From UHGV virus genome UHGV-1362914: a DNA stretch of 59,343 nt. One strand, given 5' to 3'. Every line of letters begins with the position of its first letter. Position 1 is the first letter of the stretch. The notes beneath the pieces were generated by a model. It was given only the letters and a program-made list of their open reading frames with translations, did no database searches and was not told the DNA's origin. A program made the translations under genes and the position numbers. Below are positions 1,011 to 54,415 of this stretch, piece by piece. Origin of the DNA: a virus.

Positions 1011-1011
1011 T

Positions 1012-1929: not shown

Positions 1930-1986
1930 CTCATTATCCTTAGATAAAAATAGCGCCCGGAGGCGCTATTAATTACGGGAGAGTGA

Positions 1987-2985
1987 TTAGGCTTGCGGCT
2001 GCTGCCACGGCGGAAGTTGCGCCTGAGCCGGGTGCGGAGGCTCAGCGGCAGCAGGTGCTGCTTGGGCTGCTGGCGCTTGCTGTGGCGCGGGTTGCGCGGT
2101 TTGCGTTGCCCACGGCGGCGTTGCTGCTGGCTGCTGTACCGGAGCAGGTTGTTCAGGTACAGGCTGTTGAACCGGGGCCGGAGCAGGTTGCTGGGCGGCT
2201 GCTGCTTGCTGCTGTTCCCATGCAATTTGCTCAGGGGATTTTACTGGCTGAGCAGGTGCCGGAGCAGGCTGCGGAGCAGGAGCCGGGGCAACTGGAGCAG
2301 GAGCCGGGGCAACTGGAGCAGGAGCCGGGGCAACTGGAGCAGGTTGAGCCGCTTGTGGTTGTTCCCACGGTTGAGGGCTGTTCTGCCAAGGTTGAGCAGG
2401 CGCCGCGGGTGCCGGTTGAGCTGCGGCCGGTGCAGCAGGTACGGCAGCAGGTTGGGTCGGTGCAGCTGGAACAGCGGGAGCAGCGACGCCTGGCATAGCC
2501 GGGGCGGCACCAGGGAACGGAGCAGACGCAGGAGCAGCACCAGCAGGGCGCGAACCAGGTTGAACTGCCAGAGCGCGATTAACGGTAATCATGTCGTAGC
2601 CGTTGGCTTTGTTACGATCTTCGTAGTCAGAACCTTCTTCCGCTTTATCAATTTTCAGCTTGATATGGAAGGGTTTATTGTGAAGCTCTTCAGTTTGCGA
2701 CCAACGTGGATGTTGACACGCCATAGAAAGAGCTGCCAGCTGTTCATGACCAATACGAACAGCGTCTTCGCTCGCGTTAACGACGTTATAGTCGAGGAAT
2801 ACCTTACGCCCTTTGGCAAAAGCCGGTGCGGTGATCTCAGCAACGAAATCGAGAGCTTGACCGCCGGAGTTAGTAGTACGCGATTTCGATTCGATGATTA
2901 CCGCCTGATACCAACCTTTAGGCAGTGCTTCGAAGTTCATCGCTGCGCCAGCGTGTTGGCTAGCATCAAATTGGAATTGAGCCAT
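1987..2985 (-). CDS. DUF669-like phage ssDNA-binding/recombination-associated protein with ~200-aa Pro/Ala/Gln-rich low-complexity tail
   Basis: The N-terminal ~130 aa (MAQFQFDASQ...NFEALPKGWYQAVI...) resemble DUF669 proteins that accompany Sak4. The start shares 1 nt with the Sak4 stop (TAATG). The tail contains PAPVAPA x3 and PW motifs. Confidence 0.5.
   Translation of the reverse strand: MAQFQFDASQHAGAAMNFEALPKGWYQAVIIESKSRTTNSGGQALDFVAEITAPAFAKGRKVFLDYNVVNASEDAVRIGHEQLAALSMACQHPRWSQTEELHNKPFHIKLKIDKAEEGSDYEDRNKANGYDMITVNRALAVQPGSRPAGAAPASAPFPGAAPAMPGVAAPAVPAAPTQPAAVPAAPAAAQPAPAAPAQPWQNSPQPWEQPQAAQPAPVAPAPAPVAPAPAPVAPAPAPQPAPAPAQPVKSPEQIAWEQQQAAAAQQPAPAPVQQPVPEQPAPVQQPAATPPWATQTAQPAPQQAPAAQAAPAAAEPPHPAQAQLPPWQQPQA
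2273..2344. repeat. 21-bp tandem repeat x3 (agccggggcaactggagcagg unit), coding for PAPVAPA heptads on the minus strand
   Basis: Direct reading of 2281-2344 shows period 21 with perfect copies. Confidence 0.7.
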
Positions 2986-3719
2986 TATTGATTACCTTTT
3001 GATTTGATCTTGTTGATGATATAACCCAGGTGAGGAAACTCGAACTCGGCGAGTGCTCCTGACCGATCTTTTGCACTATCGTTTAATCCTGGTTGAGTCT
3101 GTAAGACTCGTTGCTTGCTACCATCGGCACCAGGCATAACCTGATATCGAAATACTTCATCGAACAGATAAGGAAGTGCGGGCCCTAACTGTTGACCTGG
3201 CATTTTAGGCCCCCAAAGGAATTGACCTGTAACTTCGTCTTTTTCCTTTCCGAGCTTAGCAGACATATAAACATGCTTACCAGGAATATCACGGAACTTT
3301 TTGACCATTTCCAGGATCTTGTCTTGCATATCACCATAAGCTTTACGAGGATCTTTATGTTTCGGCTTATATTCGGCAAGTGCAATTTCACCCAGCTCAG
3401 ATAAAGAGTCAATACCAATCGAGTCAAAATGAGCTTGAGTATCCGGATGAATACACCACGCATAAGCTTCTTCAATCTCTGCAACGGTTTTGACAACAAT
3501 AGTCATAAAGTCGGTGGAATAAGATAAACCAGTCGGCCCGAAGATACGATCTAAGTTTTCCTTTTGCAGGGACAATAAACCGCCCTCTGCTGAAATAATA
3601 ACGGGCCGAGGCAATGTGGCCATAAGAGCCGTCTTACCCATACCCGCTTCAGCGTAATTAATCATTTTAACGCCCGAGTCTGCGACAATCTGACTCGAAT
3701 AAACCACTTGAATAGCCAT
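2985..3719 (-). CDS. Sak4-like RecA-family recombination ATPase (AAA_24-like)
   Basis: Walker A YAEAGMGKT near the N-terminus. Its size and position next to a DUF669 protein and an exonuclease are typical of a phage recombination module. Confidence 0.65.
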   Translation of the reverse strand: MAIQVVYSSQIVADSGVKMINYAEAGMGKTALMATLPRPVIISAEGGLLSLQKENLDRIFGPTGLSYSTDFMTIVVKTVAEIEEAYAWCIHPDTQAHFDSIGIDSLSELGEIALAEYKPKHKDPRKAYGDMQDKILEMVKKFRDIPGKHVYMSAKLGKEKDEVTGQFLWGPKMPGQQLGPALPYLFDEVFRYQVMPGADGSKQRVLQTQPGLNDSAKDRSGALAEFEFPHLGYIINKIKSKGNQ

Positions 3720-3822
3720 AACGCTACCTTTTGTCTTGGGGTGGTTAGTTTAAGCGATTATATTTTAGATCTGCAACCTGTTTATATGGACGCTTCTCTT
3801 TAATGTAACCACAATATCTGGC

Positions 3823-4158
3823 TTACAGCTTGCGAAGATGATTTAAATCGCGCTGGCGTATTACCTTACCCTTTAATTCGTTTGCTAACTCGTCTCGCAT
3901 TTTAAGCTGGCAAATATACAGATTAGCCATTTCCAAAGTAGGATCGATAGAGGTAGACATATCCAACAAAGTTCTACGCAAATGAGGATTTACCGCACGC
4001 TTTAAGCATTCACGAGCAGTATGCCTCATCGCTTCCGGGACAGGTCGAAGCTCGTTCTTAGCGAACCACATTGAAAGCTGTATGGTTGTAATAATATCCG
4101 GAAATTCATTGTACGCTGAGTTATTGATAACTTCCAGCGCCATGCGTTCTTTACCCAT
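3823..4158 (-). CDS. hypothetical protein
   Basis: ORF with coding periodicity in the early leftward operon. Confidence 0.4.
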   Translation of the reverse strand: MGKERMALEVINNSAYNEFPDIITTIQLSMWFAKNELRPVPEAMRHTARECLKRAVNPHLRRTLLDMSTSIDPTLEMANLYICQLKMRDELANELKGKVIRQRDLNHLRKL

Positions 4159-4408
4159 TTAAAGATTCTCCGTCTACGAAACGGGCAACATCGTCAGGGT
4201 TTCCACCGCCAGCTTTATAACCCAACGTATAAATATAGATATCGTGAGCTTTCATATACCCACCACACATCTTGCATTCAAAACCCGGACGAGGTGGTGC
4301 GGTAGTTGACCCTAATACATCCCCAAATTTATGACCAGCACAAGATCTCAATTTACGCTGATTTTCTTGTACTTGAACCCATAAGGCTTTCGCTTGTTCT
4401 TCATTCAT
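4151..4408 (-). CDS. hypothetical small protein with CxxC motif (start at MNEEQ; GGAGG 9 nt upstream)
   Basis: ECKMCGGY motif. The internal ATG has a better RBS than the track start. Confidence 0.4.
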   Translation of the reverse strand: MNEEQAKALWVQVQENQRKLRSCAGHKFGDVLGSTTAPPRPGFECKMCGGYMKAHDIYIYTLGYKAGGGNPDDVARFVDGESLNG

Positions 4409-5351
4409 CGTCATCTTCCTCCGGTGGTAGGATATCATTAATATCACGCCAAGATAAATAACGTGCTTGGCGTGGTTTCTCTTTTACACCAATAGGGAAA
4501 TGACGGAATTTGATTATTTTTTCCCCTGGTTGTATTTCACCAGACTGCCATTTTTCCCAGAGCTCAATACGCTCCGCATGAGTCATTTTACCAGGTCCGA
4601 TACGCGCCATATCGCCAGTATCAAGACGCTTAACCATAAGAGCGCCAGACATACCTTTGCCAATTTTATTGGCTTGGTGTGTACTTCTCTTTGTGAGACC
4701 CTGGGCATCGGTAAAAGCCTCATTTAAATTCTCCTCAGCTTCAAATACATCCATGAGATAACCTTCCGTATCTTCATACGGTTTACGTCGAGTATAGTTA
4801 CACTGTTTAGGTGTACACTTACCCCATTTATATTTTGCATCTGGATCACGTTGGATCAAACCTTCATAACCCATGTCTAGCCAGACCGCTTCTTGAGCTA
4901 GCAACTCCTCTTCGTTATTAACTTCAACGTAAGGAACGACCTGAAGATCTTCTAATTGCCCTATGCTATGCTGAAACTCAATCCAGTTCTTGAGCATGGC
5001 ATAGCGTTCACGATAAGGAAGATGTTGAACCGAAGGTTCACAAAGATCGAAAACGTGCCCAATTACCATAGGTTCGCCTTCTTGCGACATCACAGCTGAA
5101 ACTGTTTTACGGCAAAGATCGTCGTCAGTTTCTAAACCTGCCGCTAGTTCCATATCATATCCCTGATATAGAGGCTTACTAAAGTTCTCACGAGTGAAAA
5201 CATTAGGCATTAACGATAAAGTTCTGGTTAACAAAGTACCAAAAGGATTAAGCCCACGAACACCGTCAATCTTAGGCATAATCCAAGTGGGATAGCGCAC
5301 CATTGAAAGATCAGTGTTAACCGCACGGTAGGCGCGGAATTGTTTAGCCAT
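4401..5351 (-). CDS. ATP-dependent DNA ligase
   Basis: Adenylation motif I, MPKIDGVRG (KxDGxR). Start MAKQFRAY with GGAGAG RBS. About 316 aa, like T7/T3 ligases. Confidence 0.7.
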   Translation of the reverse strand: MAKQFRAYRAVNTDLSMVRYPTWIMPKIDGVRGLNPFGTLLTRTLSLMPNVFTRENFSKPLYQGYDMELAAGLETDDDLCRKTVSAVMSQEGEPMVIGHVFDLCEPSVQHLPYRERYAMLKNWIEFQHSIGQLEDLQVVPYVEVNNEEELLAQEAVWLDMGYEGLIQRDPDAKYKWGKCTPKQCNYTRRKPYEDTEGYLMDVFEAEENLNEAFTDAQGLTKRSTHQANKIGKGMSGALMVKRLDTGDMARIGPGKMTHAERIELWEKWQSGEIQPGEKIIKFRHFPIGVKEKPRQARYLSWRDINDILPPEEDDDE

Positions 5352-5901
5352 TTGTAACTCTCCGGCGAGAACGTAAATAATTAGACGATTGAGGTTTCTT
5401 CTTACGTTCCTGAATAGGTTCGTATGTTTCACCCCGGATAGAGGCTCTTTGTATTTGCATTTGGCGCTTAGCAGCAGCATCGCAATGGTTCTGAGCCCTT
5501 GTGCGATTGTTAGCGCCTATAGTATGCCCTGGCACATGTTTGTACCGCAATACAATACCAAAGCGATCTACAAGCCCCAGGACGTACTTCAAAACGTTGC
5601 TGAGCTGCTGGCAGTAAGGCTCTTGGCTTTCAGTTAATACTCGAATTGCAGTTAAGCTATCTGACTGAATAAGAATAACATCACTCTTAACAATCATTCC
5701 AGTGGAAAAGCCGTGCCACAAAGAATTTGCGATTGCCATTGCTTCTGCAACGTTATTATCAAAAGGCTTATCTAAAGTACCTTCAAAACCGTGACGACCG
5801 TTGTTATCAGTCGCTATCCATACACCATATCCAGCTGCTTTAGATTCAGAACAGAAAGAAGCATCTGCAATGATGGTAACTGTATTATTATTTTTCTTCA
5901 T
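5344..5901 (-). CDS. RNase H (RNase HI-like)
   Basis: Motifs IIADASF..GYG, EAMAI, HVPGH and a D near the C-terminus. About 185 aa. Confidence 0.6.
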   Translation of the reverse strand: MKKNNNTVTIIADASFCSESKAAGYGVWIATDNNGRHGFEGTLDKPFDNNVAEAMAIANSLWHGFSTGMIVKSDVILIQSDSLTAIRVLTESQEPYCQQLSNVLKYVLGLVDRFGIVLRYKHVPGHTIGANNRTRAQNHCDAAAKRQMQIQRASIRGETYEPIQERKKKPQSSNYLRSRRRVTNG

Positions 5902-5907
5902 TATTTT

Positions 5908-5932
5908 TCCAAAAGAGGGCCGAAGCCCTCTG
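5908..5932 (-). terminator. putative rho-independent terminator (AGAGGGC-TTCG-GCCCTCT + TTTTGG on minus strand)
   Basis: Perfect 7-bp stem with 4-nt loop between the 5939 gene end and the RNase H start. The T-run is short. Confidence 0.35.
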
Positions 5933-5938
5933 TTTCAG

Positions 5939-6373
5939 TTATTCAACACCTTTCGGCTTAATAAATTCGAGAGTACCGCTCGCAGGTTTTGTGGTTACGC
6001 ACTGATCGAAAATCTTATGCTGTTCTTCGTCCAGTTCGCGCCAGTTTTTGATTTTGAGAGAAGGTTTGCGTTCAATTAACTGGTCAACGTCAATACCTTT
6101 CTCACGCAAAGATGGTAGAAGGTTAGTCAACATAGCGTCGTCGACGTCACGTTGCAGTTTGTGAACAAATTTCAGACCATAGTTATTACCCAGGTCGAAA
6201 TTATTTGTACCTTCTTTAGGTGCTGTAAAAAAGGTTTTAATGATTTTCTGGCGAAGCATTGCTTCTTTTGCTTTCGCTTTAGCCAGATCTTTCTTAGCGC
6301 CGATCCACTCCATGATGTCTTCATTGGTGGCTTTTTCGGCTTCATCTGCATTGAAGTCAAATTCAGGGGTCAT
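5939..6373 (-). CDS. hypothetical protein
   Basis: ORF with plausible start; Lys-rich. Confidence 0.4.
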   Translation of the reverse strand: MTPEFDFNADEAEKATNEDIMEWIGAKKDLAKAKAKEAMLRQKIIKTFFTAPKEGTNNFDLGNNYGLKFVHKLQRDVDDAMLTNLLPSLREKGIDVDQLIERKPSLKIKNWRELDEEQHKIFDQCVTTKPASGTLEFIKPKGVE

Positions 6374-6385
6374 TTCTATCTCCTA

Positions 6386-6715
6386 TTATAATGCTTCATA
6401 AAAGTGAAGTACATAGGATTCACTAATATGTAGAGTTTTGATAAATTCACGTTTACGGAAAGGCATAACTTCACCGGTAACAAATACTTCAAAGCTACGA
6501 CCTTCACTAGACACTTGAGTATCGGCAGGTCTTTCAACCCACATATATAAAGAACCTTCCTGCATTGAGATATCAAGAACTTTGCTATCTTTAGCTAAAA
6601 ACATGCTGAAATTTTCAGCTCTTATTTTATATTTATGAATAACACGATCTTTTGTTCTTTCATTTTCGATCGTTAAACCCGGCATAATATTTCCAGTAGG
6701 TGTACTATTAGCCAT
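6386..6715 (-). CDS. hypothetical protein
   Basis: ORF in operon context. Confidence 0.4.
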   Translation of the reverse strand: MANSTPTGNIMPGLTIENERTKDRVIHKYKIRAENFSMFLAKDSKVLDISMQEGSLYMWVERPADTQVSSEGRSFEVFVTGEVMPFRKREFIKTLHISESYVLHFYEAL

Positions 6716-6735
6716 TTCTATCTCCTATCTAAGTT

Positions 6736-6777
6736 ATTGCCTACACCATTAGTATATAATAACTAACAATGTAGGCA
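6736..6777. promoter_or_regulatory. 9-bp perfect inverted repeat TTGCCTACA/TGTAGGCAA with 24-nt AT-rich loop containing TATATAAT
   Basis: Read directly from sequence. Lies between the dUTPase end and the next gene start; there is no T-run, so it looks like an operator or promoter element rather than a terminator. Confidence 0.3.
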
Positions 6778-6786
6778 AGACTCAAA

Positions 6787-7263
6787 TCACTTTAAATGAC
6801 GAGAAGCCATGATAGGTGAGCCTTTTGCAACGTTATCAGTGGAGCCAAAGCCGTTAGCTCCGCGCTCACCTTCCACCTGTGCCTTTTCTACTTCTTCGAG
6901 GACAGTGAACGGACGATAAATTAACATTGCCTGGGCAATAGCTTTACCGCGAGGCTGGAAATATGTTTCATTTCCGTCATTACGCAAACCTACCATGATA
7001 ACGCCACCATAGTCCTGGTCGATAACTCCCGTACCGTTTACCAACGTTACTTGGTTATTAAAGCCCTGCCCGCTGCGGCTAAACACCAGCAGAACATGGT
7101 CATTAGGAATTTGAGCAATCAATCCGGTGCTCGTTCGCTTCCATTCACCTGGTTTAATTTCTACATCTTCCATTGCAAAAAGGTCGAAACAAGCAGAATC
7201 TTTCGTTCCGCGTTTAGGCATAATTGCACGAGGATCTGTTCTTTGAATCTTTAAAGTAGGCAT
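6787..7263 (-). CDS. dut: dUTP diphosphatase (trimeric dUTPase)
   Basis: dUTPase motifs CFDLFA (GYDL-like), RSG, GVIDQDYGG and RGANGFGSTD. Confidence 0.75.
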   Translation of the reverse strand: MPTLKIQRTDPRAIMPKRGTKDSACFDLFAMEDVEIKPGEWKRTSTGLIAQIPNDHVLLVFSRSGQGFNNQVTLVNGTGVIDQDYGGVIMVGLRNDGNETYFQPRGKAIAQAMLIYRPFTVLEEVEKAQVEGERGANGFGSTDNVAKGSPIMASRHLK

Positions 7264-7724
7264 TACGTGTAACCTCCCGTTGTGATAATAAAGTCCGTCG
7301 CATGGGCGCGGAATATATCTTTAAAGTCGTCGAGCGTAATAATAGCACGAATCGGCGCCTTATTGTGGTAATACTCAAACTCTTCAGGGTTATGTACCCA
7401 GGGATTGAGCTCAAGCATTACAGACCACTTGCGCTTGTCCTTATATATCAGAACAGGGCGCTTCCTGGTTTCTGCCGCTGAAGTTACGCATTGTTTCCAC
7501 CAAGTATTCAGATTTAAGTTTTCCTGATTTTTGATTTCAAACGCATAACCGCATGTATTATCAATATCCATACCGCCTACAGCAGACTGATTCTGGCGTC
7601 GTTGGGCAATAGGCTTTGGCGGCAAAGGAATACCTAAAGTCTCATGAACTTCAGCATAGATATCGTTGCACCAATTTACAATATCCCTTTCGCCACGTTG
7701 ACCTTTAGCGCGGATATTAACCAT
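7263..7724 (-). CDS. PD-(D/E)XK nuclease, Holliday-junction-resolvase-like
   Basis: RGERD...MDID...FEIK arrangement (E, D, ExK). Start MVNIRAKG with GGAG 9 nt upstream. Confidence 0.45.
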   Translation of the reverse strand: MVNIRAKGQRGERDIVNWCNDIYAEVHETLGIPLPPKPIAQRRQNQSAVGGMDIDNTCGYAFEIKNQENLNLNTWWKQCVTSAAETRKRPVLIYKDKRKWSVMLELNPWVHNPEEFEYYHNKAPIRAIITLDDFKDIFRAHATDFIITTGGYT

Positions 7725-7751
7725 TCTCAATATCTCCACGTAATTTCATAG

Positions 7752-10187
7752 TTATTCCTTACAAATACGCTCGAGCTGGTCCATATCAAGCACGCGCCAA
7801 GCATGAGTATTTTTACTGATATTAATAGGCGTAATGTCGGCATTTGCAGGAGTGGCCAGGGCGGACTTTTCTCCGTCTGTAATTACTTCAATTAAACCTT
7901 CCTGAACAAAATCTACCAGTGTGCGACGAAGTATCTCCGCAGGTCCGGAGTTACGCCTTGTTTGCTCCACACGAGAAAGCTGACCCTGGCAACGTGCAAG
8001 TATGGGTCCGCGTAAGAATATATTTAGCTTCTGGTGCGGTATATAGCGTATTTCGTTCTTAATGTCTGAAAGGTCGCTGGTACAGTAGCGAAGTATAGCA
8101 TTTGCAACAGTACGACGGATTTTAGATTCATTGACTTCACCAATTTCCCCGCTTTTATAACGATCGAGCATCATCTTAACAGAAGACATTATATAAGCAT
8201 AAGACCATTCAACATGATGCTTTTCAACAATAGGCTGATCAGGTCTTTCAAATACTGCGAACGTCCCGGCCATACGCTCAGTCTTTTCCTGAATACGGTT
8301 ATAGATCTGACGCAAAGTTTCATCATTCATTTTGGCTTCATTTCCCAGCTTGCCTTCCAAGAACATCTGGATTTCATAAAGCCTGTCGCGGGCTTCTTGA
8401 GTCTCTTGAACTTCAACAGAATGCCCGTTAGTTTGATAATCAGCTTGCTGCGCAAAGATATAATGAATCAAGCTAATCAATGATTCGGGTAAATCTAAAC
8501 GTGTATTCAGATTTCGACTGGTTGTATAGCCCTCATAAACACCATAGTTAAAACGAGACATAAAACCATCAGCGGCCAGCTTACCTGTAAGGTTCTTAAA
8601 CAGAGAATCTAAGGTTGTTTCACCAATGACTGTTAATGTAACTTCAGTCGAATTAGATTCAATATTGTTTTCCTTATTGGAATACTCAGCACCGCCGCTT
8701 AACATCCCTTCGTGCGATGCTGAGTAGGCGTTAAGGAGAAAGTTTTTCTTCTCCATTGCAGCAGGGTTAGCGGTGTTATTAAGATCTTCCAGTAGACCGC
8801 CGATCTCTGGCATTATCGTACATAAATTGATCTGCTCTAACAGCTTTTTGCGCCAAGCAATAGTAGAACGCATATCAGCGGATGAGAATAAAGAGTTCAT
8901 CTCCACCCCACGCTCGACCATTTTCTTAACAATTCGCCCAATACCCAAGTGCATGGCGTTCTTACCCGTTCCTGAACGAGCCGCAATAATATAGTAAGCG
9001 TTCAGGTGCTTATCGCGATATCGCCATCCTTTAGCTGTAAGAGCAGAGGCAAATGCGAGTGCTGTGGTTATAGAAATAACCGGAACAGGTAGCGTTGAAG
9101 TGTTGTAAATCCATTTAGCAATTTCACCAATAGGCCCTGGCGGGAAACCATATTCGACCTTCTCTACTTCAAACTCTGCATCTTTAGCCGCTAACGATTG
9201 CTTAATTTCAGCTTTCTGAGCATTGGCTTTTTCAGTGTTCGCCAACCATGCCTGTACGTTATTACGGGACATAGCTATGAGCGCTTCTGTTTCTGCTTGC
9301 TTGCGCTGAATTTCTACTTGCAGGTAAGAACGCATATTGTTGATCGTACGGCTAAGATATTTATCATCAGCCATGATCTTATCTTTCTGCCCGGGCTTAG
9401 GTCCACGGTTAGCCAGCGGAGTTTTCCGGAAGATGCGCATAACCTGAGCATTGTTTGGAGATGCTTTCACCAGGAAGTTAATAAGCGCCGCATCTGCTTC
9501 TGACCCTGACGGATATTGTGTAGGGATAAGTCGGGCAATTGGTGAGTAATAAAGCACCTCAAACAGATCAGAGTTTTCCCAGCTGAGAATATCGTTAATG
9601 ACATCTTCATCTGAGCGAACTTGTGGCTGGTCTTCAACCTTGACGATGATCTTAGCTTTTTCATCAAGAAACTGAGCAAGGTATTCGCAGACCCCGTTTC
9701 CGTTAGAAATCGGCGTGTTTATAACCACATTACCCGTACAGATAATGAATCGCTCCTGGCTATAGCGTTCAATACCATAGTCAGAGGAGCGACGACCTTC
9801 ACCGTGGTTACCGTAAACCCATACATGCAATCCCTTCCCGGAAGCGGAAGATTCAACATAGGAAAACGCACCCTGGGCAATCTGCCAGAACCATTGAGAG
9901 TGTTCAGGTGGTGTGTCTTCCTTAACATCCATATCAATTACAGTGAAAGGGTCGTCAGGGGTTAGAACGAAACCAGGTAACAGACCTTCATTCATTTCGC
10001 AGAGGTGCTCTGCTGTGGCATATGACATCCAAGTTTTCGGGTCTGTGGGGGAAGCTTTTTCAAGTGGCTGCTGATAGCCAGGTGAGTACATGGGTATCTT
10101 ATCCGCATAACAAACTACCCACTGAGGGATAGCTTTTATCTCTTGCGGGAAAAGATAACCGTCGAACTCTGTTTGGAATTGTTTCAT
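7752..10187 (-). CDS. bifunctional primase-polymerase (AEP prim-pol) fused to C-terminal P-loop NTPase/helicase-like domain
   Basis: N-terminal VIDMDVK (DxD) and SGKGLHVWVY (SGxGxHxY AEP motif). Downstream P-loop ARSGTGKNA. 811 aa from MKQFQTEF. Confidence 0.55.
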   Translation of the reverse strand: MKQFQTEFDGYLFPQEIKAIPQWVVCYADKIPMYSPGYQQPLEKASPTDPKTWMSYATAEHLCEMNEGLLPGFVLTPDDPFTVIDMDVKEDTPPEHSQWFWQIAQGAFSYVESSASGKGLHVWVYGNHGEGRRSSDYGIERYSQERFIICTGNVVINTPISNGNGVCEYLAQFLDEKAKIIVKVEDQPQVRSDEDVINDILSWENSDLFEVLYYSPIARLIPTQYPSGSEADAALINFLVKASPNNAQVMRIFRKTPLANRGPKPGQKDKIMADDKYLSRTINNMRSYLQVEIQRKQAETEALIAMSRNNVQAWLANTEKANAQKAEIKQSLAAKDAEFEVEKVEYGFPPGPIGEIAKWIYNTSTLPVPVISITTALAFASALTAKGWRYRDKHLNAYYIIAARSGTGKNAMHLGIGRIVKKMVERGVEMNSLFSSADMRSTIAWRKKLLEQINLCTIMPEIGGLLEDLNNTANPAAMEKKNFLLNAYSASHEGMLSGGAEYSNKENNIESNSTEVTLTVIGETTLDSLFKNLTGKLAADGFMSRFNYGVYEGYTTSRNLNTRLDLPESLISLIHYIFAQQADYQTNGHSVEVQETQEARDRLYEIQMFLEGKLGNEAKMNDETLRQIYNRIQEKTERMAGTFAVFERPDQPIVEKHHVEWSYAYIMSSVKMMLDRYKSGEIGEVNESKIRRTVANAILRYCTSDLSDIKNEIRYIPHQKLNIFLRGPILARCQGQLSRVEQTRRNSGPAEILRRTLVDFVQEGLIEVITDGEKSALATPANADITPINISKNTHAWRVLDMDQLERICKE

Positions 10188-10245
10188 CGGGCGGCTGTCC
10201 TTGGACGTAGTTAGGGCGCCTATATTAGCGCCCAATAACGAATCA

Positions 10246-10794
10246 TTACAACTTGTAAACGCCTACGGTTGTGGCTCTGCCTTTCCATAGGTTGAGTTTT
10301 TGACACGTTATATCTTCGTGTTTTTCGATCAGCTTTTGATCCATTCTCTGGTTTTTATTGAGCGTTATGAAAACCCGATGCTTGTAGTTACCCTGGCGAT
10401 CAGAAATTTCTTGAACCAGCATGTAACGATCGCGTGACTTTTGTTCGCGTAGTTGTTCCCTCACTTCTCTCTGGCAATCTTGAATAAGGGAATTGAATTC
10501 CTCTTTCATCAAAGGTTGCCCTGAAAGTTTAATATTGTATGCTGCTTGGACAGCATCCGCAGCAGTAGTGACTGCTTTTGCTATACCCTCTTTAGCATTC
10601 TTGCTCTGTGCAATACCAACGGCCTTGTCGAAGTAAGGGCTAGTATCCCAGCCGCTGTCGCCACGCAGCATCGCAGGACGGAGGACAAGATCGGGTACGC
10701 CTGGCGTCGCGAATTTGAAAGTATAGGCTTCGCCTAACGCATCTTTTTCGTATACAACGCTCAGAACTGAGGTTTGAACTGGAAAGAATGACAT
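10246..10794 (-). CDS. hypothetical protein
   Basis: ORF; stop/start coupling with the upstream gene. Confidence 0.4.
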   Translation of the reverse strand: MSFFPVQTSVLSVVYEKDALGEAYTFKFATPGVPDLVLRPAMLRGDSGWDTSPYFDKAVGIAQSKNAKEGIAKAVTTAADAVQAAYNIKLSGQPLMKEEFNSLIQDCQREVREQLREQKSRDRYMLVQEISDRQGNYKHRVFITLNKNQRMDQKLIEKHEDITCQKLNLWKGRATTVGVYKL

Positions 10795-11414
10795 TATTCT
10801 TTATCTCCGTATTTATGAAACATTCTGCGAATTGCCTCCTCGAGACTTGGAGCAGATTCGCCCTTACGTTCGTGACTGCGCCCAATAGCAACAGTAAACC
10901 ACCGCGTAGCATCATCTTGAAACAGAGTAACGCTCGTATCGGTGCCGTTTTCAACATAACCCATAAGATTACGAATCATATCGAACATTTCGGCTTTCTT
11001 GCGCCATTTGTTAACCTCAACCATTAGCTGGCTGAGGTTAGGGCCAAATAAGCCAGCGGTAAGATCGTAGCCTTCTTCATGCTCGTCCTGGATAACGGCT
11101 TGAGTCAGTAAGCGAGCAAACACCAAAACGCCTTCGTTGAGTTTAATGGTGTTTACATCGTTACGAACTGCGTCGTGTTGATTTTCCATATTGACACGGG
11201 CTTCGAGCATCTTCCAGACGCGCTCGTACTCCGGCCAGTCGTGTTCAACGACAACAGTTTTTAGATCAGCTTTACCGCGTCTGTGACGTTCGAGGTTTAA
11301 AACTTCAAGAGTGCAATTCAAAGTGTCAATATCAGAACCGATAAGACTTCCGTGATATAAAGCATATTTTATATCAGACTTCTTAATCACGATATAACGT
11401 TCTTCACGTTCCAT
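10794..11414 (-). CDS. hypothetical protein (start MEREERY overlapping upstream stop TAATG)
   Basis: GGAG RBS 7 nt upstream of the internal ATG. Confidence 0.4.
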   Translation of the reverse strand: MEREERYIVIKKSDIKYALYHGSLIGSDIDTLNCTLEVLNLERHRRGKADLKTVVVEHDWPEYERVWKMLEARVNMENQHDAVRNDVNTIKLNEGVLVFARLLTQAVIQDEHEEGYDLTAGLFGPNLSQLMVEVNKWRKKAEMFDMIRNLMGYVENGTDTSVTLFQDDATRWFTVAIGRSHERKGESAPSLEEAIRRMFHKYGDKE

Positions 11415-11992
11415 TATTTTGCTCCGTACATTGAACAAACATAGTCAACCATATGATACCAACCTTCTTGGGTATCATAGACACCAAAATCTAGTATAGG
11501 GATATTAAGCATCTTGGCAAGACGTAAAGCCTGACCAGTACCTCCTTCACCCCGACCGCCCTCCGTCCAGCAAACAACAAATTGAACAGGTGTGTTTAAA
11601 TCTTGACCAAGGATTTGGTAAGTGTTACGCGCATGAAGTTCAAGCGCATGTGGCGATAAGTTCTTACCATTAGGATGCAACAGACGCGCAATTACCTTAC
11701 AACCTAGAACAGAACCTGTCACTTCATCTAAGTAGCTAGTTTGTTTCCAAGGCTCAGGATTCTCCCGTGTAATTTGTTCCATGCTCATATAGTTATGCTT
11801 GTTAGGCAGGAAGATTTCGCAAGAACCTTGAACAGCTCTCGCACCATACTCAAAAGCACTGTCAGCACCTTGTGCGCGTCCGCTCCGCAACGTCCAGCCA
11901 GCTTGCCCTAAGCGCCCGGCTAAGCTAGCAAATACAGCACATACCTTAGAGGGCGTTTTGCGGCTACCAATTCCGGCATATATTTTATTCAC
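11414..11992 (-). CDS. DprA/Smf-like Rossmann-fold (SLOG superfamily) protein
   Basis: IYAGIGSRKTPS...SGRAQGADSAFEYGA resembles the DprA core GSR..S...SG.A.G.D..AH. Confidence 0.4.
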   Translation of the reverse strand: MNKIYAGIGSRKTPSKVCAVFASLAGRLGQAGWTLRSGRAQGADSAFEYGARAVQGSCEIFLPNKHNYMSMEQITRENPEPWKQTSYLDEVTGSVLGCKVIARLLHPNGKNLSPHALELHARNTYQILGQDLNTPVQFVVCWTEGGRGEGGTGQALRLAKMLNIPILDFGVYDTQEGWYHMVDYVCSMYGAK

Positions 11993-12522
11993 CAGTCAAG
12001 CTCCTTACCTTGTTGCATACCTTTTCGGGTGAAATGTATCATAGTCCACCAAACAGGAGAAACAAGTCTGTTAAGGTGATCTTTCCTCCAGCCCACAGAA
12101 ATTAAATATTCCGCGCAATCTGGATATTCGAAAGATAGTTTTTCACTGTTCTTACGACTCATACATTGAACAGGTATTAATGAAAAGCCTTCCTTTTTCC
12201 TGACCATTAAACCTAATGAACGTAATCGACCCAGGATTCCATTATCCGTCCTGTTAAATTCCATACATAAATCAACAAGACGTACTTCGGTATTTTTAAC
12301 TGCCTTAGTTTTAGCCATAATCGACTGTAAGAGTTTTAACGTCTCGGGCTTAGTCCAACGCATACCCACAGAACAGCCATGACAATCGACGGGCAAGTTT
12401 TTATCATGCTTCATGCGTTTCTTGGCTTTAGCTTGTTCCAAACGGCGCCAGCGTGACTCTTCTACTTGGGCTGGAGTCATATTAGATTCGTCAACCCAAG
12501 GTATTTTCTTTTTCTTATTCAT
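11989..12522 (-). CDS. hypothetical protein
   Basis: ORF; basic N-terminus. Confidence 0.4.
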   Translation of the reverse strand: MNKKKKIPWVDESNMTPAQVEESRWRRLEQAKAKKRMKHDKNLPVDCHGCSVGMRWTKPETLKLLQSIMAKTKAVKNTEVRLVDLCMEFNRTDNGILGRLRSLGLMVRKKEGFSLIPVQCMSRKNSEKLSFEYPDCAEYLISVGWRKDHLNRLVSPVWWTMIHFTRKGMQQGKELDW

Positions 12523-12869
12523 TCTTTACCCTTACGCATACCGCGGCCCATGAACTGGATGAAATATGGGTTCTTGGCGAAGTCAGACTCTGAACGGGCG
12601 ATTAGCATATACCGGACTTTACTGCTACCAGCTTCAGTTATATCCCAGAAACGATGTCGTGGTTTACAATTCCGGGCAGTTAAGAGCTCTTGCCATTCAT
12701 AATGAATCTCAAAAAACTGATCATCCGTAAGATGTGAAAATTCAGAACGGACAATTTCCTTCGCTTTCATGAACGGTATTCTTTTTAGGCGACAATCCAC
12801 AAAAGTATCATGAAATTTCTGAAGATTCATAAACAGAGGTGATTGGAGATCTAAATGAAAGTTCAGCAT
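12519..12869 (-). CDS. hypothetical protein
   Basis: ORF. Confidence 0.35.
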   Translation of the reverse strand: MLNFHLDLQSPLFMNLQKFHDTFVDCRLKRIPFMKAKEIVRSEFSHLTDDQFFEIHYEWQELLTARNCKPRHRFWDITEAGSSKVRYMLIARSESDFAKNPYFIQFMGRGMRKGKE

Positions 12870-12876
12870 AATGTGG

Positions 12877-13113
12877 TTACCTTTCTCTCACGGATACAAC
12901 AACTTCTACGATTTCGCAAGTGTCTTCTTTCAGGTCTTTAGCAACACACATAAACATAATTTCAGCCGCTTTAATACCTGGTGTCCGGTTAGCATAAGTA
13001 AGGTCGTCAACCCAAGAAGCGTCATGTACAGTTTTACCATTTTTGACGCGAGTAACGACGCGGAGGTATTTACCAGTTTTCCGATTTTTGACAACGCACA
13101 TTATACGTTCCAT
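12877..13113 (-). CDS. hypothetical protein
   Basis: ORF. Confidence 0.35.
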   Translation of the reverse strand: MERIMCVVKNRKTGKYLRVVTRVKNGKTVHDASWVDDLTYANRTPGIKAAEIMFMCVAKDLKEDTCEIVEVVVSVRER

Positions 13114-13118
13114 AACAT

Positions 13119-13400
13119 CTACCTTATTAAGTATCTAAGCAATGTACCTATTATAAAGCAGGCTGCAACAAATACCATAGAGATCAGAATATTTATAAGC
13201 CTGTTTCGCGCCTTTAATTTAAGCTCTTCAATCTTCAGAGAGCGCTTCACACGCCGGGCAGTATCGGCCCGCGCGTCGGCGTAGCCGTCCAGCCAGTCAA
13301 AGTACCGGTCGCTGTCGAGATTAACATTGTAGGGATTTGAATCTTCACACTCGCCGTTAATGTAGCCCATATAGCCTTGCTGAATCGGATCACTGCTCAT
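13119..13400 (-). CDS. hypothetical membrane protein (C-terminal TM helix)
   Basis: Hydrophobic segment LINILISMVFVAACFIIGTLL. Confidence 0.35.
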   Translation of the reverse strand: MSSDPIQQGYMGYINGECEDSNPYNVNLDSDRYFDWLDGYADARADTARRVKRSLKIEELKLKARNRLINILISMVFVAACFIIGTLLRYLIR

Positions 13401-13620
13401 CTAAATACCTCAATATGTCTATGCACTGGTGGGAGAGCTCGTTCAACTCTTTTAACTGAGCCAACGGCAAGTGATTGCTGAAACGCGCTATGGTATCGCA
13501 CGCGCTTGAAGGAAACAGGATAAGCGCTTTCGCGGTAACAAACTTATCCAGCCCAATGTAATATCTAATCTTCCATATTTGCTCGCGTACTTGTTTTAAC
13601 TCCGAGCCCATGTCTATCAT
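13390..13620 (-). CDS. hypothetical protein
   Basis: ORF. Confidence 0.3.
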   Translation of the reverse strand: MIDMGSELKQVREQIWKIRYYIGLDKFVTAKALILFPSSACDTIARFSNHLPLAQLKELNELSHQCIDILRYLDEQ

Positions 13621-14156
13621 TTGGCACGCTCTGCTATGATTTTGCGGAACACATGATCAATCTCCTTTAATGCGTTCTTGAGTTCTGGAGGTTGGTCCTT
13701 AATCAATTCGCCGATCACTTTCTTAAAATCCCCGCCCTCGTAGAATTGCGGGTACTGAGCCGCAACGTATCCTTTCCAGTTTAGCATCTCGGCACGCGGT
13801 TCGTTAGTGGTCTTATAGACAGTACCCCACAGCGTATATTCGTACTCACCTTTGACCTTTTTAGGGCGACCAGGTTTTTTATCGGCTTTCTTAGCTTCTC
13901 GTGTGGAAGCTTTCGCGGTCTGCTGATCTGTATACGCTCCGAACCACCATTCTGCATAAGAACGGCGGTAATACACGCGCTGGCTATCTTTAACCACAAT
14001 TACACGCCGAGCTTTAATAAGCTGCGTTTGGCGTGACATAGAGATTTTATACTTTTCTTCTACTTCTTTGGCAGTCATATATCGTTGTCTGAATTCTTCG
14101 TTTTCAACTTCAGTCCAATGATCTATATCAGCTTGCGTCATTTCTAAAGGGTTCAT
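13617..14156 (-). CDS. putative DNA-binding early protein (AT-hook-like KKPGRPKK)
   Basis: First gene of the leftward operon. Basic region KKADKKPGRPKKVK. GAGGAG RBS. Confidence 0.4.
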   Translation of the reverse strand: MNPLEMTQADIDHWTEVENEEFRQRYMTAKEVEEKYKISMSRQTQLIKARRVIVVKDSQRVYYRRSYAEWWFGAYTDQQTAKASTREAKKADKKPGRPKKVKGEYEYTLWGTVYKTTNEPRAEMLNWKGYVAAQYPQFYEGGDFKKVIGELIKDQPPELKNALKEIDHVFRKIIAERAK

Positions 14157-14946
14157 ATTAGCTCCTCAGTCTACTACGCACATTATATAGGCAAAGTAAA
14201 TGATCATCTAGTCTTATTTAGTTACTTTATAAATGCATAGTCTTATGCAGGAGATTGCTATAGTTACTTTAGTGAAAATAGCGAAAGTAAAGTAATTATC
14301 GGAGGTGGATAGCTATAGTTACTTTAGGATGGATTATGCGAGTAGCTTTAATTACTTTTCCTATAGTTACTTTACTAACTTTGCTAAGCCTTGCTATAGC
14401 TGGAAAAGCTTTACTTAGGTGAGTTACTTTAGCAACAACATGCTTTCGTACTTTCCGCTTTCACTATAAGTACCCTGGAAAACTACCTATAGAAACTCGT
14501 AACTATAGTCCAATTATTTTTCATGAATTCAGTAAAAAAGTAGTAAAGTAGTAAGTAATATATAGATGAATATACGTATTTACTGGGTTTTCTCTGCTTT
14601 CTGGGCTATAAAGTTCATTAAAGTACAAATCTAGTAGAATTTTCTTCTTTCTAGAGACGAATAATGCGGTAAGAAAGTGGTCACTCAACTACCTGACTAG
14701 CATATACCTGACCAGCAATATTTCAATTTGACAAATTTGGATTTTAGATTTTCAGATTTTGATTTTTCGTTTCTTATTTATGACTTGTTTTGAGCTCGTT
14801 TCTGCGCTAGAATACTTATATTACCAATGCCGCTGAAGATTCGAAGTCCTAAGGACGATAGATAAGCGCGTTGGCACAATGTGGTTACAGAAATCGACTT
14901 CACATAACAGCAGAAAGCTGAAAAATCAGAATAGGAGTGCTATAGA
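14157..14946. promoter_or_regulatory. divergent control region between the leftward early operon and the rightward block. Contains candidate sigma70-like elements (TATAAT on minus at about 14183..14188; TTGTTT-17-TAGAAT on plus at 14785..14813) and phased A/T tracts
   Basis: 790 bp without ORFs, AT-rich. Hexamers were read directly from the sequence; the -35 matches are weak. Confidence 0.35.
14221..14431 (+). repeat. iteron-like array of five direct copies of GTTACTTTA plus one inverted copy (three in the extended form CTATAGTTACTTTAG)
   Basis: Direct copies start at 14221, 14263, 14318, 14366 and 14423, spaced 42-57 bp apart. Inverted copy TAAAGTAA near 14288. Palindrome CTATAG x4. Confidence 0.6.
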
Positions 14947-18990: not shown

Positions 18991-19083
18991 GTTAATGCGT
19001 AACCTGTATTGTGGTTACACTGATTGCTTCATTCCTGGTGGTACACTACGGATTCTATTTCAGAGAATCTTGGAGACAAAATA

Positions 19084-19877: not shown

Positions 19878-20058
19878 GCCTGGTTATAAAGTGCGTCGCT
19901 TAGGTGGCGGCCTGTATTGTGTAGAGCGCGACGGTAAGCATCCGTCTTATATCCGTCGCATTGAAGAAGGCTCTCGCAACTCCTATTTCTGCGGTGGCGG
20001 TAGTCCGTGGTTCCCTACGCTGCGCGATGCAATCTTCCACGTAATTTCACACTGGTGA
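19858..20058 (+). CDS. hypothetical small protein
   Basis: AAGGTG RBS before MHNKMYKP. Confidence 0.35.
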   Translation: MHNKMYKPGYKVRRLGGGLYCVERDGKHPSYIRRIEEGSRNSYFCGGGSPWFPTLRDAIFHVISHW

Positions 20059-20063
20059 TTAAT

Positions 20064-20360
20064 ATGACCTATGAAGAGTATAAGGTCCACTTACAGTCTC
20101 AAGGTTGGACTTGCTGGGCTCGTTATATGGGAACAGGGACTGAAAGCGCTTGTGAAATGAATCATCCCGACTGTTCCTATATTCTTACAGTTGAAGATAA
20201 ACCTGACGGTGTTGTAGCTAGCGCTACTATAACCCTACCGGGTTTCATTCAACCTGTAACCACAGGAAAGTTTGGATCACCTTGGTCCAACAAAGCATTC
20301 TTCACACAAGTTCAACGTCTTGACAAAATCAAACGTTTGGTGGGAGATCAATTGAAATGA
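20064..20360 (+). CDS. hypothetical protein
   Basis: GGTGA RBS before MTYEEYK. Confidence 0.35.
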   Translation: MTYEEYKVHLQSQGWTCWARYMGTGTESACEMNHPDCSYILTVEDKPDGVVASATITLPGFIQPVTTGKFGSPWSNKAFFTQVQRLDKIKRLVGDQLK

Positions 20361-23085: not shown

Positions 23086-23332
23086 GGTTAAAGAACTTGC
23101 TAAGTTCAATCCCGCTGGCTATTGGGAATTACCTCATAATATGTTTGTCACTGATAACGAAAGTATTATGATCGCTATTATTGACAGCGCCACAGATGAA
23201 ACCATGGTCTTGTTTTGGGATAAATCCGAGCAAACTTGGTTTCATTATACCAACTGCTTTGGACTCGGAGAAGGTAATGATGTTGCCACTAAATCTCTTA
23301 TCAGTGAATGGCTTGAAACAGCTAGCGGTTAA
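23054..23332 (+). CDS. hypothetical protein (start uncertain)
   Basis: ORF; weak AAGGG RBS. Confidence 0.3.
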   Translation: MKDLTTIFPTEVKELAKFNPAGYWELPHNMFVTDNESIMIAIIDSATDETMVLFWDKSEQTWFHYTNCFGLGEGNDVATKSLISEWLETASG

Positions 23333-23831
23333 GTTGCTGCCGTGGCTGGTGCTTATTGTGGTTACAGTTCTGCTTTATTTATTTGCCCAGAATAAGTGGA
23401 ATGAAGCATTAGAAACCAAGTATAATGCTGGTGTTAAAGACGGTAAACAGGCCGTAGTTGACGAGTATGAAAACAAAGCCGCTCAGCTACGAAACAAGTT
23501 AGATATTGACAAAGGTAAAATCGAGTATGAAGCACATCAAAATATTGAGGTCGCAAATCGTGACGCTCAGTCTGCTCGCGATCTTGCTGACAGCTTGCAG
23601 CGAACGCTCGACAAAGTACGAAGCATCGCCAGTCGTGCCGGAGCAACTGTCACCACTAGCACGTCAACCACAAAAGCCGTCGATCTGCTCGCCGACATGC
23701 TCGTCAAATCAAATCGTCGAGCAAACCAATATGCAGAATTCGCTGACCGAGCTTTTGAAGCAGGTCGAACCTGTGAACGACAATACGACTCATTGAGGGG
23801 CCGGATAATTGAACAAACTACCTCCAAATAG
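23277..23831 (+). CDS. Rz: i-spanin (Rz-like)
   Basis: N-terminal TM LLPWLVLIVVTVLLYLF followed by a coiled-coil periplasmic domain. GGAG RBS. Contains an embedded +1-frame lipoprotein gene. Confidence 0.55.
   Translation: MMLPLNLLSVNGLKQLAVKLLPWLVLIVVTVLLYLFAQNKWNEALETKYNAGVKDGKQAVVDEYENKAAQLRNKLDIDKGKIEYEAHQNIEVANRDAQSARDLADSLQRTLDKVRSIASRAGATVTTSTSTTKAVDLLADMLVKSNRRANQYAEFADRAFEAGRTCERQYDSLRGRIIEQTTSK
23527..23796 (+). CDS. Rz1: o-spanin (Rz1-like lipoprotein) embedded in Rz
   Basis: MKHIKILRSQIVTLSLLAILLTAC signal peptide with LTAC lipobox. Pro-rich mature part. Confidence 0.5.
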   Translation: MKHIKILRSQIVTLSLLAILLTACSERSTKYEASPVVPEQLSPLARQPQKPSICSPTCSSNQIVEQTNMQNSLTELLKQVEPVNDNTTH

Positions 23832-24018: not shown

Positions 24019-24077
24019 TTGACCACAGTATCAAAAGCATGTAGCCTTACTCTGTCATTTATTAGAGGAGTAGGGCT

Positions 24078-31587: not shown

Positions 31588-32196
31588 ATGAACGAAAAGA
31601 TTATCGAAGGCCTGAAAACTCTGGACGCCAAAGTTGACGCTCAGTGGACCCAAGACGGCCTGGTCAACTTGAACGGTTTTAAATTCGTGCTAGGCGGTGA
31701 AGCGGTTACGCGCGAACAGCTGGAAGAAGCGGCCCCAGGTTTTAATCGTGAAAACGCTGAAACCTACTTTCTGACTAAAACAGCAGAACCCAAAGCTGCT
31801 GTAGAAAGCCCCGCGAAAGATCGCAGCAATGTGGTCACAGGCGAAATCAAACTACTGGTAGAAGTTCAGTTCTCGGATGCTATTCGCGCTCTTCTAGGCG
31901 ACGCTCTTGATATTAAAGTTGAAGAGCTGACGCTTGAGCAACTGAAAGATCTGATGCCGCAAGTTCCGGAACGTCGCAATCAGCTGATCAACCTCCGCGA
32001 AGAAATGCTGAAAGCAATCGAAGCTGAAATGAACCAGCTGGTTAATATTGAAGCGGCTTATGACCGCTCTGTTCCGAAAGATAACCATTCTGATATCGTG
32101 AAGCAGGTCTATCTGGCGAACGCTGGTAAGTATCAAGAAGTGGACCGCCCACGCGCCCGCGCTGCTGCGATTGTTCCTCCTTTGAACCGTCGATAA
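31588..32196 (+). CDS. hypothetical head/neck structural protein
   Basis: ORF in the morphogenesis block. Confidence 0.4.
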   Translation: MNEKIIEGLKTLDAKVDAQWTQDGLVNLNGFKFVLGGEAVTREQLEEAAPGFNRENAETYFLTKTAEPKAAVESPAKDRSNVVTGEIKLLVEVQFSDAIRALLGDALDIKVEELTLEQLKDLMPQVPERRNQLINLREEMLKAIEAEMNQLVNIEAAYDRSVPKDNHSDIVKQVYLANAGKYQEVDRPRARAAAIVPPLNRR

Positions 32197-39355: not shown

Positions 39356-39381
39356 TGTGGTCACTATAACAGGACGATAAC

Positions 39382-54381: not shown

Positions 54382-54415
54382 AATTTCTCCGAGGCGCATC
54401 CTTGCGCCGGGACGA

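Follow-up and report, generated by a model that had tools for sequence, protein, structure and literature searches.

TGTGGTYA, a dispersed 8-mer of Queuovirinae phages, as the probable recognition sequence of an NrS-1-type primase-polymerase

The virus genome UHGV-1362914, a stretch of 59,343 bp that we refer to in full as the window, represents the entire genome of a Queuovirinae siphophage in circularly permuted form, and the strict 8-mer 5'-TGTGGTYA-3' recurs in it about once per 2 kb. By analogy with NrS-1, whose primase-polymerase (PrimPol) reads an 8-nt site, we propose that the phage's own primase-polymerase/helicase, encoded at 7752-10235 on the minus strand, probably recognises TGTGGTYA in its template. 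A sequence-only reading of the region at 12867-12880 had drawn attention to longer strings that carry this word; the recurring unit is the 8-mer and not a 13-14-mer.

Definition and copy number of the motif

TGTGGTYA occurs 28 times in the window against about 3.5 expected copies, as 19 copies of TGTGGTTA (about 1.9 expected) and nine copies of TGTGGTCA (about 1.5 expected). TGTGGTTA is the top 8-mer of the genome with z = 12.3, whereas the maximum reached in 20 Markov simulations (shuffles and order-3 Markov) was 5.6-7.9, and a compositional artefact was rejected on this basis. When six genomes were examined, all single-mismatch variants of TGTGGTYA stood at background and only position 7 was degenerate (T/C); so strict a word is more in keeping with an enzyme recognition site than with a degenerate operator. 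Softer preferences surround it in the lineage of the window, Y A W preceding the word on its 5' flank and C/A, then A, following it on its 3' flank.

The sites are divided between the strands as 17 plus and 11 minus (binomial p = 0.35, not significant). Eight are intergenic, more than would be expected from the 6.4% of the genome that is non-coding (P = 3e-4), ten lie in genes in the sense orientation and ten in genes in the antisense orientation. Two sense and two antisense reading phases are occupied in addition to intergenic DNA, and a peptide or codon artefact was therefore rejected. The mixed phases, the equal sense and antisense counts and the intergenic copies together argue that the motif acts at the DNA level and is not tied to transcription.

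Most of the individual strings of the sequence-only reading were found where it had placed them. Exact CAYAATGTGGTTAC is present three times, at 12867, 14875 (given there as 14874, off by one) and 47154, all on the plus strand with 0 copies expected; GTATTGTGGTTAC, with none expected by chance, stands at 19006 and 57824. The near-variants are likewise in place, TAATGTGGTCAC at 39353-39364, 18 nt ahead of the ATG at 39382, and TATTGTGGTTAC at 23354 within the open reading frame (ORF) 23181-23831. Its claim of enrichment beyond chance also holds, both for TGTGGTTA and for TGTGGTTAC, the shared core of the longer strings (11 copies against 0.37 expected). The statement that all copies lie on the plus strand fails, with 4 of the 11 TGTGGTTAC copies and 11 of the 28 TGTGGTYA sites on the minus strand, and the description of the motif as mostly intergenic is true of the five long exact copies only, since 20 of the 28 core sites are inside genes. 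The 13-14-mers are intergenic TGTGGTYA copies with the full flank preference of the lineage, YAW-TGTGGTTA-C, which intergenic copies would be able to show because they are free of coding constraint.

Spacing, orientation and conservation

The sites are spaced more evenly than random positions in each of ten genomes, with a coefficient of variation of the gaps of 0.47-0.67 against about 0.95 for random placement (P ≤ 0.016 in each). Mean spacing ranges from 1.1 to 3.2 kb, which is the scale of Okazaki fragments. When every genome is oriented with its late genes on the plus strand, plus sites equal or outnumber minus sites in all of them (pooled 180:112, p = 8e-5, a value that overstates independence, some of the genomes being related).

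Conservation was measured against Enterobacter phage EC151, which is about 78-80% identical to the window in alignable parts. At 78% column identity only 20% of 8-mers are perfectly conserved (background 0.20); among 23 aligned sites, 19 are identical and 21 keep the motif (P = 2e-10), and both tolerated changes are T<->C exchanges at the degenerate position 7. The TGTGGTYA sites are under purifying selection. Upstream of the word, G is scarce at position -3 in five genomes (0/28, 1/29, 3/50, 2/56 and 7/46) and A is favoured at -2; this bias is compatible with a constraint on the first primer nucleotides and proves nothing.

The motif in related phages and integrated islands

Enrichment in relatives had been suggested as a check, and a word of the TGTGGTYA class (TGTGGTYA or TGTGGYCA) proved to be the top over-represented 8-mer in all seven Queuovirinae genomes examined, which cover the hosts Klebsiella, Enterobacter, E. 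coli, Pseudomonas and Vibrio. TGTGGTYA has 31 copies in Klebsiella phage vB_Ko_K4PH164 (93-94% identical to the window over the aligned parts of a 12-20 kb query), 29 in EC151, 50 in the E. coli Seuratvirus Seurat (where TGTGGTTA alone has 42 copies against 2.2 expected, z = 27), 56 in the E. coli Nonagvirus FritzHoffmann and 46 in the Pseudomonas Nipunavirus PAJD-1 with its 58% GC. Vibrio phage 033B, in which TGTGGTCA (20 copies) and TGTGGCCA (17) are enriched to the same degree and TGTGGACA has 6 copies, is relaxed at position 6 and not at position 7. Over-representation thus runs from about 8-fold in the window up to roughly 20-fold in relatives. Given such different hosts, the protein that reads the motif is most likely encoded by the phages themselves.

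A tblastn search with the primase returned matches in 365 phage records. Ab26, Samson, RcTitan, Loki and Achromobacter phage LB5 share the replication module without DpdA and the que genes, and their primases are about 27% identical to that of the window. These five phages contain zero TGTGGTYA; their top word is TGTGGGCW (Ab26, Loki, RcTitan, Samson) or CTGTGGGC(A/G) (LB5), with 18 copies against 0.24 expected in Ab26 and 17 against 0.29 in RcTitan. The core TGTGG is common to both motifs. The presence of this sister motif in phages without DpdA and que genes excludes the deazaguanine system as the reader. The sequence-only reading had also suggested that modified G positions might cluster at the motif. 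Published DpdA targets are GA and GGC in CAjan (PMC7544227) and GA in iggy (PMC10484667); no G of the motif stands in a GA or GGC context, so that such clustering finds no support in these rules, and a DpdA target or loading site was rejected on this ground and on the enrichment of the sister motif in DpdA-less phages.

In three of the sister-motif phages the shorter word GTGG is itself scarce: both strands of the roughly 43-kb genomes of Ab26, RcTitan and Samson hold 63, 45 and 89 copies. In these three phages 85%-89% of TGTGG is followed by G, mostly within TGTGGGC, and GTGGT is almost absent (0 in RcTitan). Partial primase sites may have been purged from these genomes. In the window GTGG is not depleted (339 copies against 300 expected).

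The closest database homologs of the N-terminus of the window primase (30-38% identity) belong to small integrase-bearing islands in bacterial chromosomes, in which the PrimPol N-terminus is joined to a different NTPase domain, AAA_25. The gene lists of five islands did not contain PolB, clamp, SF2 helicase, Cas4 nuclease or DpdA. Together the five carry 15 TGTGGTYA copies against 1.9 expected (P = 2e-9), while their chromosomal flanks carry 2 against 2.05 expected. Among the comparisons made, only that of the islands links the word specifically to the PrimPol N-terminus and not to the replication module as a whole. Three of them from different samples (L018, L022 and L023) share a second word, GGTTCGCT/AGCGAACC, with 5-7 copies against about 0.3-0.7 expected, and another (L020) has seven copies of GCGCAAGT; these extra words may be origin iterons of satellite-like elements.

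Phage T1 served as a control and showed no enrichment, with 4 TGTGGTYA copies and unrelated top 8-mers. Its primase and replication genes carry different annotations, and T1 is absent among the primase tblastn matches listed. T1 has enriched 8-mers of its own, ACCAGTCA (17 against 2.0 expected), CTGACTGG (15 against 1.7) and GTGCTATT (16 against 1.7, strands 4:12).

The primase-polymerase as candidate reader

The protein that we consider the candidate reader, and its parts, are as follows.

7752-10235, minus strand: 827-aa primase-polymerase/helicase, with archaeo-eukaryotic primase (AEP) Prim/Pol domain, putative NrS-1-type helix-bundle domain (HBD) and DUF3987
9717-10130 (aa 36-173), minus strand: AEP Prim/Pol domain, from NrS-1 primase structures
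9333-9503 (about aa 245-301), minus strand: putative NrS-1-type HBD, from a weak PF22763 match, the family and a model
8214-8675 (aa 521-674), minus strand: DUF3987 region, from Pfam

The 827-aa protein matches phrog_3022 (DNA primase), and its residues 36-173 match the NrS-1 primase-polymerase in the PDB (phmmer E = 3e-10). PF22763, the "NrS-1 polymerase HBD domain", was detected with E = 5.8e-8 in the homolog P0014, which also carries DUF3987. A family profile made from the window N-terminus and 17 database homologs matched the NrS-1 N300 structure over chain residues 10-289, covering Prim/Pol and HBD (E = 3e-32), and also 7OLA, a solved 797-aa "DNA primase" (E = 1e-40). For an alignment-built AlphaFold model (pLDDT 77), the top six Foldseek matches were NrS-1 N300 (E = 2.5e-13, 296 columns), and the predicted model next ranked the pRN1 prim-pol with its HBD (3M1M, 9AAM) and then RepB'. 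Family-level and structural evidence of this kind points to an HBD in the window protein.

According to published work, the NrS-1 enzyme uses the sites 5'-TTTGGTTA-3' and 5'-GTG(A/G)-3', of which GTGG is efficient (Zhu et al. 2017, cited in PMC8718748; PMC7102993). The HBD of NrS-1 binds the site (PMC8718748, PMC7102993), and synthesis, though subject to some slippage, begins at the first base 5' of it (PMC8718748). Eight nucleotides is an unusually long requirement, and only two copies stand in the NrS-1 genome, on opposite strands close to its centre, for which an origin-like role was proposed (PMC7102993). TGTGGTTA is identical to TTTGGTTA at 7 of 8 positions and contains GTGG; by our own count, about 1.5e-3 of random 8-mers come this close to TTTGGTTA in either orientation.

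Proposed mode of action

By analogy with NrS-1 and pRN1, the HBD would bind the 8-mer in the single-stranded template at the fork, and the Prim/Pol domain would start a primer on the template bases just 5' of the site and extend it away from the site. The primer would then be passed to the phage family-B DNA polymerase and sliding clamp. Chance would provide only about 3-4 such 8-mers in 59 kb, so that the genome would have to carry dedicated sites, and selection would keep about one site per 2 kb, evenly and on both strands, allowing discontinuous synthesis to be primed everywhere. A long word that must be supplied by the genome would explain the over-representation, the even spacing of about 1-3 kb, the use of both strands and the conservation inside genes. 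A plus site would prime leftward synthesis and hence serve rightward forks, and on this reading the mild plus excess would point to a majority of forks moving the same way as the late genes are transcribed.

Several observations weigh against this proposal. In the window protein itself the PF22763 match (aa 245-301) is below threshold, with E = 0.09. The 8-nt site of NrS-1 occurs only twice per genome and has a proposed origin-like role (PMC7102993), so that a dispersed lagging-strand role would go beyond what NrS-1 offers as a precedent. The NrS-1 PrimPol also uses the short GTG(A/G) (PMC8718748, PMC7102993), and if the window enzyme does likewise, the 8-mer would not be needed for priming. 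Along the genome there is no orientation switch point, so that neither an origin nor a fork direction can be read from the sites. In twelve phages it is the replication module as a whole, and not the primase by itself, with which the class of motif co-varies. The islands contribute unevenly (6, 4, 2, 2 and 1 sites, the island with one site, L018, being without a clear TGTGG 8-mer), and their signal depends on island borders that we estimated. Binding and priming at the sites of the window phage are what we infer by analogy.

Comparison with known priming systems

The window and NrS-1 enzymes are homologous, sharing an AEP Prim/Pol domain, an HBD and a C-terminal NTPase region, and both sites are 8 nt long and asymmetric; the NrS-1 site is read on a single-stranded template, as the window site would be. 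The two systems differ in copy number, with two copies in NrS-1 as opposed to 28 evenly spaced copies in the window and up to 56 in relatives. Moreover, the NrS-1 PrimPol is itself the replicative polymerase, whereas genes for a family-B polymerase and a clamp are present in the window phage as well; at its C-terminus NrS-1 has a characterised SF3 helicase, in contrast to DUF3987 in the window protein; and position 2 of the site is T in NrS-1 and G in the window.

The pRN1 ORF904 protein, next-best structural match after NrS-1, has an HBD that binds 5'-GTG-3', and GTG is embedded in TGTGGTYA. However, it belongs to an archaeal plasmid, has about 13% identity, and its 3-nt site needs no genomic provisioning, unlike a site of eight strict positions. 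T7 gp4 recognizes a 5'-GTC-3' core, for example in 5'-TGGTC-3', and T4 gp61 uses 5'-GTT-3' and 5'-GCT-3'. These are also dispersed template signals that place lagging-strand primers, and TGTGGTC contains the T7 sequence TGGTC, but both enzymes are DnaG/TOPRIM primases with zinc fingers and a fold unrelated to AEP PrimPols, and their sites of 3-5 nt are frequent by chance. We know of no T7 or T4 primase site that is over-represented as a genome-wide word.

In the literature we found no description of TGTGGTTAC, TGTGGTTA/TAACCACA, TGTGGTCA or the sister site TGTGGGCA, of a genome-wide enrichment of the motif, or of the motif in connection with a promoter or primase of Queuovirinae, within a searchable library that is incomplete; a search with the NrS-1 site TTTGGTTA likewise returned no report describing the window motif, and the EC151 paper makes no mention of promoter, primase or repeat. 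Sequence-specific priming and the 8-nt NrS-1 site are known, whereas an NrS-1-type site as a dispersed, conserved and genome-shaping word is apparently new.

Alternative explanations

The sequence-only reading had preferred replication, packaging or recombination signals, or enzyme target sites, over promoters. That preference agrees with the evidence for primase sites presented here, although its premise of a fixed strand was wrong.

The motif could be a Chi-like control word, read by the phage SF2 helicase and Cas4/RecB-family exonuclease or by another recombination machine, that attenuates degradation or stimulates recombination-dependent replication. A strict, non-palindromic, over-represented 8-mer with mild strand bias is the statistical signature of bacterial Chi, and TGTGGTYA is such a word, dispersed over both strands of the whole genome with an orientation bias, as are Chi (5'-GCTGGTGG-3') and KOPS; the annotations of most phages examined also include the adjacent helicase and exonuclease genes. 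Nevertheless, we consider this explanation unlikely, since islands that have only the PrimPol N-terminus, without the helicase and nuclease, are still enriched, and near-identity to the NrS-1 primase site would have to be a coincidence. To our knowledge there is no precedent for recognition of Chi by an SF2 helicase with Cas4-type proteins. The proposed priming site differs from Chi and KOPS in sequence, in its reader (a primase instead of RecBCD or FtsK) and in its role (priming instead of recombination or translocation). The RecBCD Chi itself was rejected: canonical GCTGGTGG is unrelated in sequence and has 6 copies in the window, and the motif is kept in Pseudomonas and Vibrio phages and in islands.

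A similarly low probability attaches to a binding site for some other protein of double-stranded DNA (DUF7173, or a transcription or nucleoid factor) that would coat or organise the genome. A "putative DNA binding protein", DUF7173 in the window, is syntenic across Queuovirinae, and the intergenic excess of sites would suit such a role, but this excess is also expected if coding constraints limit where sites can be placed. The recognition is too strict for a typical regulator, the sites within genes take either orientation, their even spacing shows no clustering at promoters, and such proteins are not in the gene lists of the enriched islands.

We regard site-specific single-strand nicks in virion DNA, made by a phage nickase as in T5 or Pseudomonas phage tf and suggested in the sequence-only reading, as very unlikely. 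The motif is indeed strict, asymmetric and dispersed with a modest strand bias, yet in nicked phages the nicks are not known to lie on more than one strand, while here 39% of the sites belong to the second strand; the annotations show no nickase shared by all the phages and islands, and the match to the NrS-1 primase site would be left unexplained.

Middle or late promoters for the host RNA polymerase, possibly phage-modified, which had been the fallback of the sequence-only reading, have a negligible probability. Some 5' flanks do resemble a -10 hexamer (CATAAT, TATTGT), a single copy, the one at 12867, has a weak 9/12 sigma-70-like match, and a few copies precede a gene start by 18-90 nt. 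However, sense and antisense sites are equally numerous, most sites are in coding DNA, and the intergenic plus copies at 12872 and 57828 are oriented opposite to the genes around them. Promoter-like matches in 12-20 kb number 13, no more than the 15.8 expected by chance. Seurat, FritzHoffmann and PAJD-1 keep the 8-mer, which is enriched across hosts, but have no -10-like flank, and the spacing is even rather than at operon starts.

Resemblances to a DnaA box, Tus/Ter-like or dif-like sites were rejected as well, the motif being conserved across hosts. For the DnaA box (TTATCCACA, relaxed TTWTNCACA), the reverse complement of the motif, TTAACCACA or TGACCACA, breaks the conserved T at position 4, and the exact DnaA-type variant TGTGGATA(A) is at background with 2-5 copies; the window has one perfect and three relaxed DnaA boxes.

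A possible priming code and its implications

If TGTGGTYA is a primase site, a broader and more tentative idea follows, which we consider possible and rather less probable than its opposite: the siphophage clade represented by the 365 records, together with the PrimPol islands, may replicate under a private "priming code" of 8-nt words. Each word would consist of the TGTGG core and a lineage-specific 3' triplet (TYA, YCA, GCW or GCR), and strands may start only there. Evenly spaced copies on both strands would then be required, the word would co-evolve with the HBD, and purging of partial words (GTGG) appears to have taken place in some lineages. Priming limited to self DNA would allow self to be discriminated from host at the level of replication, recombination between lineages would be constrained, and the genomic signature would predict primase specificity.

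Primase specificity could, if the proposal is correct, be read from genome statistics for hundreds of phages of Queuovirinae, Septimatrevirus, Lokivirus and Titanvirus, including model and therapy phages of E. coli, Klebsiella and Pseudomonas. It would also provide a case of an entire genome shaped by an 8-nt primase site, with 20-56 even copies compared with two in NrS-1, and the natural TYA, YCA and GCW variants would offer a simple test system for how the HBDs of AEP enzymes read DNA. In phage recoding and engineering, synonymous changes could destroy priming sites. The proposal may further bear on why defence systems sense the replication proteins of these phages.

Genome arrangement and catalogue of sites

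The helicase gene is divided between the two ends of the window (1-1010 and 58350-59343), which indicates a circularly permuted whole-genome assembly without natural termini. Genes run on the minus strand at 1-14156, on the plus strand at about 14.9-46.9 kb (early genes, lysis, terminase, head and tail) and again on the minus strand at 47.3-59.3 kb (DNA polymerase, clamp, DpdA, que genes and helicase). The 28 sites are listed below.

452-459, plus: TGTGGTCA, antisense in the helicase gene; retained in EC151
3806-3813, minus: TGTGGTTA (within TATTGTGGTTAC), intergenic; retained in EC151
5990-5997, plus: TGTGGTTA, antisense in the DUF7173 gene
9063-9070, plus: TGTGGTTA, antisense in the primase gene
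9722-9729, minus: TGTGGTTA, sense in the primase gene
12872-12879, plus: TGTGGTTA, within 12867-12880; fills the 7-bp gap between two minus genes
13991-13998, minus: TGTGGTTA, sense in ORF 13617-14156; retained in EC151 despite a flank identity of 0.52
14880-14887, plus: TGTGGTTA, in a divergent intergenic region; lost in EC151, which reads TGTGGATA
19010-19017, plus: TGTGGTTA (within GTATTGTGGTTAC), intergenic
20257-20264, minus: TGTGGTTA, antisense in ORF 20007-20360; lost in EC151
23357-23364, plus: TGTGGTTA, sense in the spanin-region ORF; EC151 reads TGTGGTCA, a change at the Y position
24020-24027, minus: TGTGGTCA, intergenic
26455-26462, plus: TGTGGTCA, sense in terL; EC151 reads TGTGGTTA
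29533-29540, plus: TGTGGTCA, sense in the scaffold gene
31830-31837, plus: TGTGGTCA, sense in ORF 31588-32196
33735-33742, plus: TGTGGTTA, sense in ORF 33620-34069
36705-36712, minus: TGTGGTTA, antisense in the tape measure gene
38064-38071, minus: TGTGGTTA, antisense in the tape measure gene
39356-39363, plus: TGTGGTCA (within TAATGTGGTCAC), between the tape measure stop codon and the next gene
40833-40840, minus: TGTGGTTA, antisense in ORF 40553-40960
47159-47166, plus: TGTGGTTA, entirely in a hairpin loop
47989-47996, minus: TGTGGTCA, sense in the DNA polymerase gene
48774-48781, plus: TGTGGTTA, antisense in the DNA polymerase gene
50522-50529, plus: TGTGGTTA, antisense in the DpdA-like gene
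54520-54527, plus: TGTGGTCA, antisense in ORF 53773-54531
54611-54618, minus: TGTGGTTA, sense in the QueC-like gene
57828-57835, plus: TGTGGTTA (within GTATTGTGGTTAC), intergenic
58768-58775, minus: TGTGGTCA, sense in the helicase gene

Two of these copies overlap gene boundaries. The motif at 12867-12880 spans the TAA stop (12877-12879) of one minus gene and the ATG (12867-12869) of the next, and the TAA of TAATGTGGTCAC at 39353 is the tape measure stop codon.

A copy displayed in a hairpin loop

The copy at 47154 had been placed in the loop of a perfect 10-bp hairpin, and this description is borne out.

47142-47176, plus: hairpin between the convergent tail and DNA-polymerase operons

Its stem pairs GACAAGGTAG (47142-47151) with CTACCTTGTC (47167-47176), and its 15-nt loop, GTCATAATGTGGTTA, would present the 8-mer single-stranded; the predicted folding has a dG of -12.3 kcal/mol and a z of -3.6. 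Six other flanked sites of the window were folded and gave no significant structure around the motif, the site at 47159 being the only one in a loop. Elsewhere, loop-displayed copies occur in K4PH164 at 21220 (the same locus), FritzHoffmann at 35417 (minus), PAJD-1 at 27610, Ab26 at 31881 and Samson at 32257. There is a tendency towards one copy per genome in a 12-22-nt loop of a 7-10-bp intergenic hairpin, and the sites of Ab26 and Samson are at the same place, adjoining the recombinase gene. A loop-displayed site could serve in single-strand initiation or as an origin-like signal, or it could be no more than a terminator; roughly estimated, such sites exceed chance by a small to modest margin.

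Apart from the motif, a 21-bp tandem repeat (unit GAGCAGGAGCCGGGGCAACTG, 4.3 copies, 90% match) lies at 2250-2343 within the minus ORF 1987-2985, which matches phage single-stranded DNA-binding protein (SSB) families. The repeat, which would encode a 7-residue repeat, is the source of the GGAGCAGG words seen on the plus strand only in the k-mer table.

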